A stretch of DNA of 64,000 bases from Escherichia coli (GTDB lineage: Bacteria; Pseudomonadota; Gammaproteobacteria; Enterobacterales; Enterobacteriaceae). Of the stretch, positions 1,754 to 48,621 are shown in pieces. Positions within the stretch are counted from its first letter, which is position 1. Each line of letters opens with the position of its first letter. The notes below the pieces were generated by a model. It made no database searches and was not told the DNA's origin. It saw only the letters and a list, made by a program, of their open reading frames with translations. The stretch lies in NCBI RefSeq assembly GCF_046105845.1, contig NZ_CP151004.1; one strand, given 5' to 3'. The position numbers and the translations under genes are program-made.

Positions 1754-2520
1754 TGAGCAATTTATTAGGCCCCCGTGACGCCAACGGCATTCCGGTCCCG
1801 ATGACGGTGGATGAATCCATCGCCAGCATGAAGGCGTCGTTACTGAAAAAAATCAAACGTTCTGCCTACGTTTACCGCGTGGACTGCGGCGGCTGCAACG
1901 GCTGCGAAATCGAAATTTTCGCCACGCTTTCGCCGCTGTTTGATGCAGAACGCTTCGGCATTAAAGTCGTTCCTTCACCGCGTCATGCGGATATTTTACT
2001 GTTTACCGGCGCGGTCACCCGTGCAATGCGATCCCCTGCGCTGCGTGCGTGGCAGTCCGCGCCGGACCCGAAAATCTGTATCTCCTACGGTGCCTGCGGT
2101 AACAGTGGCGGGATCTTCCATGATCTCTACTGCGTGTGGGGCGGTACGGATAAAATCGTCCCGGTGGATGTTTATATCCCTGGCTGCCCGCCAACGCCTG
2201 CCGCCACGCTGTACGGCTTCGCGATGGCGCTCGGCCTGCTGGAGCAGAAAATCCACGCTCGTGGGCCGGGTGAACTGGATGAACAACCGGCGGAGATCCT
2301 GCATGGCGATATGGTGCAGGCGCTGCGTGTGAAAGTAGATCGCGAAGCACGCCGACTGGCGGGTTATCGTTACGGTCGTCAGATTGCCGATGACTTCCTG
2401 ACACAGTTAGGGCAGGGCGAAGAACAGGTTGCACGCTGGCTGGAAGCGGAAAACGATCCGCGTCTGAACGAGATTGTCAGCCATCTGAATCATGTTGTTG
2501 AAGAGGCGCGTATCCGATGA
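1753..2520 (+). CDS. hycG: Hydrogenase-3 small subunit
   Basis: 255 aa; 1-nt TGATG overlap with hycF; Cys-rich small-subunit motifs (CGGCNGC, GCPP). Confidence 0.92.
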
Positions 2521-2927
2521 GTGAAAAGGTGGTGTTCAGTCAACTGAGCCGTAAATTTATTGATGAGAACGATGCCACGCCCGCCGAGGCGCAGCAGGTG
2601 GTCTATTACAGCCTGGCGATTGGTCACCACCTTGGGGTTATCGATTGCCTGGAAGCGGCGCTCACCTGTCCGTGGGATGAATATCTGGCATGGATTGCCA
2701 CTCTGGAGGCGGGCAGCGAAGCCCGCCGCAAAATGGAAGGCGTGCCGAAATATGGTGAGATCGTCATCGACATTAACCATGTGCCGATGCTGGCCAACGC
2801 ATTCGATAAAGCCCGGGCAGCGCAAACTTCGCAGCAGAAGGAATGGAGTACAATGCTGTTAAGTATGCTGCATGATATTTATCAGGAAAACGCCATCTAT
2901 TTGATGGTGAGGAGATTGCGTGACTGA
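2517..2927 (+). CDS. hycH: Formate hydrogenlyase maturation protein
   Basis: 136 aa; ATGA overlap with hycG; operon position. Confidence 0.9.
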
Positions 2928-3390
2928 CGTTTTACTCTGTGTTGGCAATAGCATGATGGGCGATGATGGCGCAGGCCCGCTACTGGCGGAAAAGTGCGCC
3001 GCCGCGCCGAAAGGTCACTGGGTGGTGATTGACGGCGGTAGTGCACCGGAAAACGACATTGTCGCTATTCGCGAACTGCGCCCTACGCGACTGCTGATTG
3101 TCGACGCCACTGATATGGGGCTAAACCCCGGCGAGATCCGCATCATCGACCCGGATGACATCGCCGAGATGTTTATGATGACTACCCATAACATGCCGTT
3201 GAACTACCTTATCGACCAGTTGAAAGAAGATATTGGCGAAGTGATTTTCCTCGGCATCCAGCCGGATATCGTCGGCTTTTACTACCCGATGACCCAGCCG
3301 ATTAAAGATGCGGTGGAAACCGTTTATCAACGACTGGAAGGCTGGGAAGGGAATGGCGGATTCGCGCAGTTAGCGGTGGAAGAAGAGTAG
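2920..3390 (+). CDS. hycI: Hydrogenase-3 maturation endopeptidase
   Basis: 156 aa, N-terminus [22 protein letters not shown]; overlaps hycH end by 8 nt. Confidence 0.92.
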   Translation: MTDVLLCVGNSMMGDDGAGPLLAEKCAAAPKGHWVVIDGGSAPENDIVAIRELRPTRLLIVDATDMGLNPGEIRIIDPDDIAEMFMMTTHNMPLNYLIDQLKEDIGEVIFLGIQPDIVGFYYPMTQPIKDAVETVYQRLEGWEGNGGFAQLAVEEE

Positions 3391-3448
3391 TTCGTAGACA
3401 AACATGTTCACGTTTTGGAATTTGGACGTGCAATTGTGACGTGTAGAC

Positions 3449-3473
3449 GGGTGTTTACATATTGTGAACACCC
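3449..3473. promoter_or_regulatory. Inverted repeat GGGTGTT-N11-AACACCC upstream of the toxin gene; candidate antitoxin operator
   Basis: Perfect 7-bp inverted arms read directly in the sequence; a second related pair (tgttcac near 3406 / gtgaaca near 3464) lies nearby; about 85 bp upstream of the ATG at 3557. Confidence 0.35.
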
Positions 3474-3556
3474 GTGTGATCAACTACTATAGAAAAATAA
3501 ATCCGAAGGAATGGTAGTCCAGGTTTAGTCATTCAGGCGCTAATAAGGAAGTTAAA

Positions 3557-3868
3557 ATGCACATCATTTCTAAAGCGCCATTTGAAGAGTGTGCGCGCAA
3601 ATATCCTAACGACGCTCTGGCTCTACACTCATTGTATCGGGTTATTAAGGAAACGGATTTTTCTACACCAGAAGAAATGCGAACGGCGTTTCCCAACCTC
3701 GACAATTTTAGATATCGCAACAAATGGTACGTTCTGGATGTCGGCGGGAACAATCTTAGGGTTATTGCCTACATAAACTTTGTTAATAAGCGGTTCTTTG
3801 TGAAGCACATAACGAATCACGCAGAGTATGACAAACTGACACGTTACTACAGAGAGAACAAAGAATGA
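3557..3868 (+). CDS. HigB-family (RelE/ParE superfamily) mRNA-interferase toxin
   Basis: 103 aa; recognisable similarity to E. coli HigB (FPNLDNFRY...YVLDVGGNNLRVIA); SD aaggaag upstream; toxin-first order typical of higBA. Confidence 0.75.
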   Translation: MHIISKAPFEECARKYPNDALALHSLYRVIKETDFSTPEEMRTAFPNLDNFRYRNKWYVLDVGGNNLRVIAYINFVNKRFFVKHITNHAEYDKLTRYYRENKE

Positions 3869-4284
3869 CTGCTAATGCTGCACGCGCTGTTAAAGCAACA
3901 AGAGAACTGGTCAATGCAGTCCCCTTTCTGGGAGGTAGTGACTCAGAAGATGATTATCGTGAAGCACTGGAACTGGTCGAATATTTGATTGAAGAAGATG
4001 ACACCAATCCACTTATCGACTTTCTGGCGAGCCGCATTGCAGAATATGAAAACAACAACGAAAAGTTTGCCGAGTTCGACAAAGCCGTTGCAGCAATGCC
4101 GGTTGGCGTGGCGTTACTTCGTACGCTGATTGATCAACATAATCTGACCTATGCGGATTTGAAGAACGAAATCGGCTCTAAATCCCTGGTCAGTCAGATT
4201 TTGTCTGGACAACGATCCCTGACGATATCCCATATTAAGGCACTTTCAGCCCGATTTGGCGTTAAGCCGGAATGGTTTCTTTGA
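3865..4284 (+). CDS. HigA-family HTH (XRE-type) antitoxin
   Basis: 139 aa; start overlaps toxin stop (ATGA); C-terminal HTH-like segment (GSKSLVSQILSGQRSLTISHIKALSARFG) resembling HigA. Confidence 0.75.
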   Translation: MTANAARAVKATRELVNAVPFLGGSDSEDDYREALELVEYLIEEDDTNPLIDFLASRIAEYENNNEKFAEFDKAVAAMPVGVALLRTLIDQHNLTYADLKNEIGSKSLVSQILSGQRSLTISHIKALSARFGVKPEWFL

Positions 4285-47268: not shown

Positions 47269-47651
47269 AATTCGGTTACTCCTTTACGAACGTTTTCGAT
47301 ATCGCTTTGCGTACCCATGAGTTCAAAGCGGTACAGCCACGGCACGCCGCATTTCCGGGCTATCACATCTCCGGCGCGGCCATACGCCTCACCAAAGTTG
47401 CGATTACCCGAAGCAATAACGCCGCGCAGCAACGCCCGGTTGTGCTCGTCGTTTAAAAAGCGAATGACCTGTCGTGGCACTGCGCCAGCTGTACCGCCGC
47501 CGCCGTAAGAGGGCACGATCAGGATGTAAGGCTCGTCTACCTGAATCCGTTCCCGCTCATTGAGCGGGATGCGCACCGCGGGCAGTCCTAAACGTTCGAT
47601 AAAACGCTGCGTATTTTCGGAGCTGCTGGAAAAGTAGACGAGTTGGCTCAT
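47241..47651 (-). CDS. nrdI: Flavodoxin-like NrdI
   Basis: 136 aa, [14 protein letters not shown] flavodoxin-like start. Confidence 0.92.
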
Positions 47652-47893
47652 GCACTGGCCGCGTGTGGCGCTGGATGCAGACGATTGATCATGTCCGGGC
47701 GGAAACCAGACCAGCTAAGATCGCCAGCAATCACTACCGGCAACTGACGAAAGCCCTGAGCACGCAGCGCTTCCGCCGCTTCAGGAACGCGATCGACATT
47801 AATCATTTCAAAATCAAAGCCCCGGTTTTCCATCGCCCGTTTGGTGGCGTGGCACTGAACGCAATCGTTACGAGTGTAAATAGTAATGCGCAT
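47648..47893 (-). CDS. nrdH: Glutaredoxin-like NrdH
   Basis: 81 aa with CVQC redox motif. Confidence 0.93.
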
Positions 47894-48079
47894 GATTCGT
47901 ATTTCCGTTTAAAATGAAGATACGGCGCGATGATACGCGTCGGGTTGTCTCTCTGTTGATACAGAGATACTAGATGTAGTTGAAAAAAGATTCAACCACA
48001 CAATATATAGCAAATAGTGGTCGAAATTACCCTGGGTATGAGCGTGACGGGGTAGGGGGATTTTTGTGATTCACCAGGC

Positions 48080-48110
48080 AAAAAGAAACCCCGAAGCCAG
48101 GCTTCGGGGT
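48080..48110 (-). terminator. Intrinsic terminator of ygaM
   Basis: Minus strand: accccgaagc-ctg-gcttcggggt hairpin followed by ttctttt. Confidence 0.7.
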
Positions 48111-48140
48111 CAAAAACGCGTATTTATTATCATTATTGCA

Positions 48141-48470
48141 CTACGATTTGCGCATGCTTAACAGTGCGCCGATAAAAATACCAACCGCAGCTGCTGTACC
48201 CACGCTACACCAGGGTCTTTCACGAACAAAAGAATCCGCGCAGCCAACGGCATCGCGCGCGGCTTGCTGGACGCGAGTACGACCATGCATTCGCGCTCTG
48301 GTTTCTTTCAGTAGAGCCTGCGCTTTACTACGAGCGGCTTCGGCTTCCCCTTTGGCGTCGCTGCCCCAGGACTTCAATACAGATTCGAGGCTGTCAGCTA
48401 ATTGATTGACATCATTCTGGATATCCTGCACGCCATCATCGACGTCGTTGCGGTTCGGTCGGTTAAACAT
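48141..48470 (-). CDS. ygaM: ElaB/YqjD-family ribosome-associated inner membrane protein
   Basis: Start at MFNRPNRNDVDD; C-terminal TM anchor. Confidence 0.85.
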   Translation of the reverse strand: MFNRPNRNDVDDGVQDIQNDVNQLADSLESVLKSWGSDAKGEAEAARSKAQALLKETRARMHGRTRVQQAARDAVGCADSFVRERPWCSVGTAAAVGIFIGALLSMRKS

Positions 48471-48621
48471 ATGATCCCCCATTAGAATTCGATGTAATTT
48501 TCAGTGTAGACCATAATTTTCTTAACTGAGGTTCATCGCGGCTTTATGGACTTTTCTGAAAGCGTTGTGAATGCGCAATCAGGTAAGGTAGGCCCGCGGT
48601 TGATAATAACGAGGATCAAAT

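Follow-up and report, generated by a model that had tools for sequence, protein, structure and literature searches.

The nrdHIEF operon of E. coli, encoding the back-up ribonucleotide reductase, is under the control of NrdR, Fur and IscR, and the question raised by this locus is which of the sequence elements upstream of nrdH belongs to which of these three regulators. The earlier note on the window (the whole stretch of 64,000 nucleotides analyzed here) had singled out two elements between 47940 and 48012, an inverted repeat and an A/T-rich half-palindrome, whose assignment could not be settled by eye. We argue, with a probability of about 0.8, that the stretch is the known nrdHIEF promoter whose NrdR, Fur and IscR sites lie elsewhere than on the inverted repeat (hereafter the palindrome), the palindrome itself being probably incidental.

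The nrdHIEF promoter and its tandem NrdR boxes

The window is a piece of the E. coli chromosome; a 901-nt query over ygaM-nrdH-nrdI found matches, with identities of up to 99.6%, in 5421 of the 5426 complete E. coli genomes, and the window and MG1655 share an identical sequence from 48035 into nrdH. In the list of open reading frames nrdI and nrdE are found downstream of nrdH, and the YgaM reading frame (48482..48141) upstream. Since nrdH is encoded on the minus strand and the flagged stretch lies upstream of it, this stretch is the core of the nrdHIEF promoter and has to be read on the minus strand. The placement of both elements upstream of nrdH in the earlier note was thus correct (nrdH occupies 47893..47648 on the minus strand, followed by nrdI and nrdE), and so was its list of regulators, as NrdR, Fur and IscR are all published regulators of nrdHIEF. 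The promoter, the NrdR boxes and the control by Fur and IscR are, likewise, already known from the literature. The features of the promoter are as follows.

47648..47893, minus strand: nrdH coding sequence, first gene of nrdHIEF, with its ATG at 47893 (list of open reading frames and RefSeq annotation of matching E. coli genomes)
47990..47995, minus strand: probable -35 hexamer TTGAAT, read from the sequence, in the linker between the NrdR boxes
47967..47972, minus strand: probable -10 hexamer TAGTAT, read from the sequence and assigned by spacing and conservation, inside NrdR box 2
47958..47962, minus strand: predicted window of transcription start, most likely the A at 47960, 7 nt past the last -10 base
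47998..48013, minus strand: NrdR box 1, TTGCTATATATTGTGT, from the published oligo layout and ranked first by the matrix; its core is the A/T-rich element of the earlier note
47967..47982, minus strand: NrdR box 2, CAACTACATCTAGTAT, from the published oligo layout and the matrix; it contains the -10 hexamer and abuts the 7-bp palindrome
47997..47983, minus strand: 15-bp linker between the NrdR boxes, GGTTGAATCTTTTTT, from the published oligo layout

A 57-nt nrdHIEF oligo has been reported to bind E. coli NrdR with a KD of 138 +/- 32 nM in the presence of ATP plus dATP, and was also used for cryo-EM (Rozman Grinberg et al. 2025, PMC12176259). Its layout is 5 nt of flank, a 16-nt box, a 15-nt linker, a second 16-nt box and another 5 nt of flank, and the boxes were described as overlapping the RNA polymerase site (PMC12176259). 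On the minus strand of the window, 48018..47962 reproduces the published 57-mer with 0 mismatches; going by this sequence identity, this DNA would be bound in vitro by NrdR with ATP plus dATP. To avoid circularity we built the NrdR matrix solely from the four nrdAB and nrdDG boxes and scanned both strands of the 64 kb (128,000 positions) with it. Box 1 scored 12.70 bits and ranked first, while box 2, at 11.76 bits, was the third distinct site. The starts of the two boxes are 31 bp apart, and they form the sole pair at 31-32 bp spacing within the 64 kb; at a threshold of at least 8 bits none of the 100 simulations gave such a pair. Thus at 48013..47998 and 47982..47967 two box matches, a 15-bp linker, overlap with the promoter and a position directly upstream of nrdH are all found together, as in a tandem NrdR operator.

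The promoter itself reads TTGAAT, a 17-bp spacer and TAGTAT. The location of the -10 inside box 2 and of the -35 in the linker fits the published overlap of the boxes with the polymerase site. The two 16-bp boxes would lie on either side of the -35 TTGAAT, with the -10 TAGTAT covered, and NrdR binding would be expected to occlude RNA polymerase.

For a phylogenetic footprint we collected nrdH loci from 80 Enterobacteriaceae species, and the 76 usable upstream regions were aligned with the window (77 sequences). Conservation of at least 80-90% in most columns was observed for box 2 with the -10, for the core of box 1, for GGTTGAA and from 47914 through about the first 30 nt of nrdH. The conserved core of box 1 reads C-ATAT-TTGT; GGTTGAA, around the -35, is kept at this level across genera; in the part of box 2 at 47980..47967 every column is at least 90% conserved and most are invariant; and the -10 TAGTAT is identical in all 77 sequences. 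The A/T-rich half-palindrome acacaatatat, which had been placed at about 47996..48010 and proposed as a regulator site, is indeed present (at 47998-48008) and is the core of NrdR box 1 seen on the other strand. Box 2, which lies between the two elements then listed, had been missed.

A few other observations on the promoter region may be recorded. A TC at 47973-47974 (minus strand, -13/-14) precedes the -10, placing a C at -13. A C at this position is a feature associated with sigma-S-dependent promoters. It fits the RpoS dependence that has been reported for nrdE expression. Upstream, a strong intrinsic terminator of ygaM is found on the minus strand at 48087-48111 (an 11-bp GC-rich stem, a 3-nt loop and a T-run), which insulates the nrdHIEF promoter against read-through. 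We also noticed a second dyad, TGTGGTTGAA-N6-TTCAACTACA (47975-47984 / 47991-48000), absent from the earlier note, whose 10-nt arms differ at one position and which spans the linker between the NrdR boxes, with its centre on the -35; its conservation across genera is only partial.

In the 5' UTR of nrdH a GC-rich inverted repeat, CGACGCG tatcat CGCGCCG, is present at 47923-47942 on the minus strand. Among the 77 Enterobacteriaceae sequences its arms are at least 90% conserved and its spacer is variable. Pairing holds in 77% of cells when the sense strand is considered and in 84% for the antisense strand; at the middle position 69 of the 77 have an A.C mismatch, which becomes G.U on the other strand. 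A few compensatory variants were seen (CGACGT/ACGTCG, CGACGC/GCGTCG and CGATG/CATCG). For this repeat neither an RNAalifold consensus, nor an Rfam match, nor a description in the literature was found, and it may act as a site on the DNA or as a hairpin in the leader.

Fur sites and a probable IscR site near nrdH

Fur was scored by matching to the 19-bp consensus and by means of published ChIP-exo coordinates. To map the MG1655 peaks onto the window we used an offset between genome versions taken to be 1978 bp, and the peak positions in CFT073 and W3110 corroborate this value. Two occupied sites were obtained.

48011..48045, no strand assigned: upstream Fur-occupied site, MG1655 ChIP-exo peak P87 (2798593-2798627 in NC_000913.2), overlapping an 11/19 consensus match at 48013-48031
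47866..47895, no strand assigned: downstream Fur-occupied site, MG1655 ChIP-exo peaks P88 and P89, spanning the nrdH start codon

The MG1655 peaks, 2798593-2798627, 2798743-2798772 and 2798753-2798761, come from the Fur pan-regulon study (PMC10164565, Dataset 2). The same study places a Fur ChIP-exo peak at nrdH +2..+14 in CFT073 and a Fur peak at nrdH +8..+20 in W3110 (PMC10164565); we checked the coordinates of both against the annotation and found them within the first 20 nt of nrdH. An independent Fur ChIP-seq peak in CFT073, of height 849, is centred at nrdH +19. Six further strains have one nrdH-assigned Fur peak each, marked intragenic (PMC10164565). Around the start codon the consensus matches are two overlapping ones of 11/19, at 47879-97 and 47888-906, and Chen et al. 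2007 rated the nrdHIEF Fur site at a modest 10.1 bits. In the published sets examined no Fur ChIP-exo peak lies over the palindrome at 47950-47967. By occupancy Fur is placed not on it but at two places flanking it, one just upstream of box 1 and a stronger one across the ribosome-binding site and start codon of nrdH. The earlier note was right to name Fur as a regulator, but the occupancy falls outside the flagged stretch or at its edge, at 48045..48011 and 47895..47866.

The downstream site coincides with a segment of unusual conservation. The stretch 47866-47914, made up of the final 21 nt of the 5' UTR plus about 30 nt at the start of nrdH, is about 100% conserved across genera, synonymous positions included, and it coincides with the start-codon Fur ChIP-exo site and the ribosome-binding site. 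Judged by the alignment, the constraint on it goes beyond coding.

Upstream of nrdH, by comparison of E. coli genomes, the promoter region is polymorphic. At about 48009-48075 (2055-3990 in locus L002) two alleles exist, and 1389 of 5421 E. coli genomes, for example ABU 83972 and CFT073, align with the window solely from 48008 downstream. In ABU 83972 and CFT073 a gene of the PLP-dependent aminotransferase family and one of the carboxymuconolactone-decarboxylase family lie between ygaM and nrdH, and the window carries the short, K-12-type allele. Between the alleles no alignment is possible over a 40-bp patch that takes in both the 5' third of box 1 and the upstream ChIP-exo site of Fur. The box 1 sequence of the long allele is TTCCCATATCTTGTGT, scoring 7.7 bits, and that of the short allele in the window is TTGCTATATATTGTGT, scoring 12.7 bits. 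By sequence comparison, the B2-type box 1 and upstream patch are common to most other Enterobacteriaceae.

The best Fur consensus match near nrdH, 14/19 at 48119-48137 on the minus strand (AATAATGATAATAAATACG), lies between the stop codon of ygaM, which it directly follows, and the ygaM terminator, and is about 2 kb from nrdH in strains with the two-gene insertion. It is not among the nrdH ChIP-exo peaks retrieved, and could act as a decoy or provide a weak auxiliary site. As CFT073 carries the two extra genes between ygaM and nrdH, its Fur signal cannot come from this Fur-box-like sequence beside the ygaM stop. The best Fur consensus matches of the entire window, 15/19 each, are at 62589-62607 and 60572-60590. 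An AT-rich stretch at 62300-62620, upstream of a 750-aa open reading frame (59966..62218, minus strand), also holds an NrdR-like 16-mer of 11.7 bits at 62581-62596. The 15/19 Fur matches and this 16-mer, around 60572-62620, are probably artefacts of AT-richness.

For IscR, published text describes activation of nrdHIEF from a type II site that embeds the -35, with half-sites of the form CCxYA. On the plus strand of the window CCACA (47996-48000) abuts TTGAAT, and combining this with the published -35-embedded site we place the IscR site at about 48016..47992.

47992..48016, minus strand: probable IscR type II site, its right half-site TGTGG (48000..47996) directly before the -35

The 25-bp IscR type II pattern fits poorly at 48016..47992, with 4 of its 12 specified positions mismatched. 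This pattern has no discriminating power here, as with up to 3 mismatches it gave 546 matches in the window against 514 expected. A locally better match at 48038-48062 (3 mismatches) was rejected, since the literature places the site elsewhere. So positioned, the IscR site would overlap NrdR box 1 and not the palindrome.

The 7-bp inverted repeat and its possible roles

We then asked what the palindrome, the leading element of the earlier note, could be.

47950..47967, no strand assigned: inverted repeat TCTCTGT-N4-ACAGAGA, reading tctctgttgatacagaga on the plus strand, at about -7 to +11 of the predicted start

Its location was given correctly, but the description of the repeat as near-perfect understates it, as the 7-bp arms (47950-56 / 47961-67), separated by a 4-nt spacer, are perfect; if one mismatch is allowed, the arms lengthen to 10 nt (47947-56 / 47961-70). 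The 64-kb window contains 75 perfect repeats with 7-bp arms and a loop of 0-8 nt, against 43.5 +/- 8.1 expected from first-order Markov simulations, and at least one such repeat occurred in 12.7% of simulated 247-nt regions of the same composition. With chance producing it this often in like regions, the palindrome is real yet not significant alone. When the 34 nt that follow the -10, a location picked after the fact, were shuffled, 0.3% of the shuffles had an arm of at least 7.

None of the three regulators scored on it. The best NrdR 16-mer on the palindrome has -1.44 bits and ranks about 3137, and as the published NrdR oligo includes just 5 nt of the palindrome, the repeat is dispensable for NrdR binding. 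The Fur consensus reaches 10/19, at 47958-47976, a score equalled at 1214 positions of the window. The IscR 25-bp type II pattern is mismatched at 4 of the 12 specified positions, as in several neighbouring frames, and does not discriminate here. The reading of the palindrome as an NrdR, Fur or IscR site thus drew no support from any of the three scores, and for Fur no ChIP-exo peak lies on it in the published sets. A matrix scan of the kind suggested in the earlier note separates its two elements, with the A/T-rich one giving an NrdR match above background while the palindrome is at background for both NrdR and Fur. The palindrome would, from these scores, not be an operator for NrdR, Fur or IscR. 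To our knowledge it bears no resemblance to MntR, NikR or TrpR-like motifs beyond a few bases.

The dyad could instead be the operator of an uncharacterised fourth DNA-binding protein, possibly specific to Escherichia, which would block open-complex formation or promoter escape. Its centre near +2.5 is a classical position for a repressor, and it is locally unusual, given the 0.3% of 34-nt shuffles that yield an arm of 7. In the footprint, the palindrome columns agree with the window in just 10-80% of the 77 sequences, and 41% of cells retain its pairing, which does not exceed the shuffled or slid controls. Among 72 species outside Escherichia, no repeat longer than 4 bp was found in the equivalent 34 nt, the distribution being that of the shuffled null, and in these species the remainder of the promoter hardly varies. 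Also, no further copy of the palindrome, which would hint at a regulon, is present in the 64-kb window; NrdR, Fur and IscR are all at background on it, the spacer is wrong for a LexA-like site, and such a repeat is expected by chance in 13% of comparable regions.

Within Escherichia the picture is different from the other genera in that the palindrome is present in E. coli and in two other Escherichia species. One base of an arm is substituted in E. whittamii (TCACTGT). E. albertii differs from the palindrome by five substitutions, yet carries a perfect repeat of 10 bp whose register has moved by one base. A single change gives perfect 10-bp arms in 128 of the 5420 E. coli genomes, Nissle 1917 and ABU 83972 among them. 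These perfect arms, which count in favour of a fourth regulator, could reflect selection for dyad symmetry. Quasi-palindromes have a known tendency to be perfected by template switching. The perfect arms could also have arisen in this manner. The pattern in E. albertii and the 128 genomes keeps alive a small probability of a genus-specific function, and we consider it unlikely that the dyad at -7..+11 is an operator, acquired in this genus alone, of an unrecognised fourth regulator of nrdHIEF. Should a protein bind the palindrome, the manganese-dependent back-up reductase would come under an additional, genus-specific level of control, which would be of modest specialist interest.

Alternatively, the repeat may host the -35 (TCAACA, 47959..47954) of a second, downstream sigma-70 promoter, TCAACA-18-TATCAT. 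This was the only promoter-like pair in our consensus scan (47959..47930, 9/12 matches), and it is also the pair given for the ygaM>nrdH spacer in a genomic SELEX study. The listing is, however, a best-match pick within a low-resolution binding fragment, and the one match in the scan compares with 1.1 expected from shuffles. Moreover, neither hexamer is conserved outside Escherichia, where TCAGTA or TCAGCA stands in place of TCAACA, and TATCAT forms the variable spacer of another repeat; it is TTGAAT-17-TAGTAT which is conserved at the level of at least 80-90%, with an invariant -10. We therefore rejected the second promoter on grounds of conservation, and regard it as quite improbable.

The palindrome may also be transcribed as a 5'-proximal RNA stem-loop that stabilises the nrdHIEF mRNA or modulates its translation. 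As RNA, the 25-nt segment has a folding energy of -10.2 kcal/mol (z = -3.5 relative to shuffles), and when the start is assumed at 47966 it makes up the 5' hairpin of the minimum-energy UTR fold. However, the -10 ends at 47967, and from its geometry transcription should begin inside the repeat, at about 47960. A start inside the repeat would leave the 5' arm untranscribed and outside the mRNA, so that no 5' RNA hairpin could form. Covariation is also lacking, as the 41% of cells that pair among the 77 sequences are like shuffled or slid controls; RNAalifold returned 0 consensus pairs on the UTR alignment, and the Rfam matches were all sub-threshold, far below gathering scores, with none on the palindrome. 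A stem-loop role thus appears very improbable.

Taken together, the palindrome most likely has no function of its own and would be an Escherichia-confined quasi-palindrome in the CT/AG-rich DNA of the start site.

Element-to-regulator map and comparison with known systems

The outcome of this analysis is a map of elements to regulators, in which NrdR is assigned to 48013..47998 and 47982..47967, IscR would lie over the -35, and Fur is assigned to 48045..48011 and 47895..47866. The eye-catching palindrome is assigned to none of NrdR, Fur and IscR. The earlier note, overall, had the regulators right and flagged one true NrdR box, but its lead element belongs to none of the three. The discovery value is little, the window being identical to the sequence used in the published NrdR experiments and the regulators NrdR, Fur and IscR being published.

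When compared with known systems, the palindrome is like the LexA SOS box, CTGT-N8-ACAG, in containing CTGT....ACAG. The spacer is 8 nt in the SOS box and 4 nt in the palindrome, which ruled out a LexA reading. Among IscR type II sites, such as those of ydiU and sufA, nrdHIEF is likewise activated with its -35 embedded in the site, as stated in published text, and a CCxYA half-site abuts TTGAAT; the left half-site differs in being poor in this allele, with TG in place of CC. With regard to Fur operators, built as a 19-bp box or as arrays of GATAAT-like hexamers, nrdHIEF is likewise a core member of the Fur regulon, occupied next to box 1 and on the start codon, but both occupied sites are weak consensus matches (11/19) and neither is over the palindrome. 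Finally, the boxes do not differ from those of the described E. coli nrdHIEF operator, with 57 identical nt, two 16-bp boxes and a 15-bp linker (PMC12176259); the 7-bp palindrome is not part of this tandem NrdR box system and begins at the last base of box 2.
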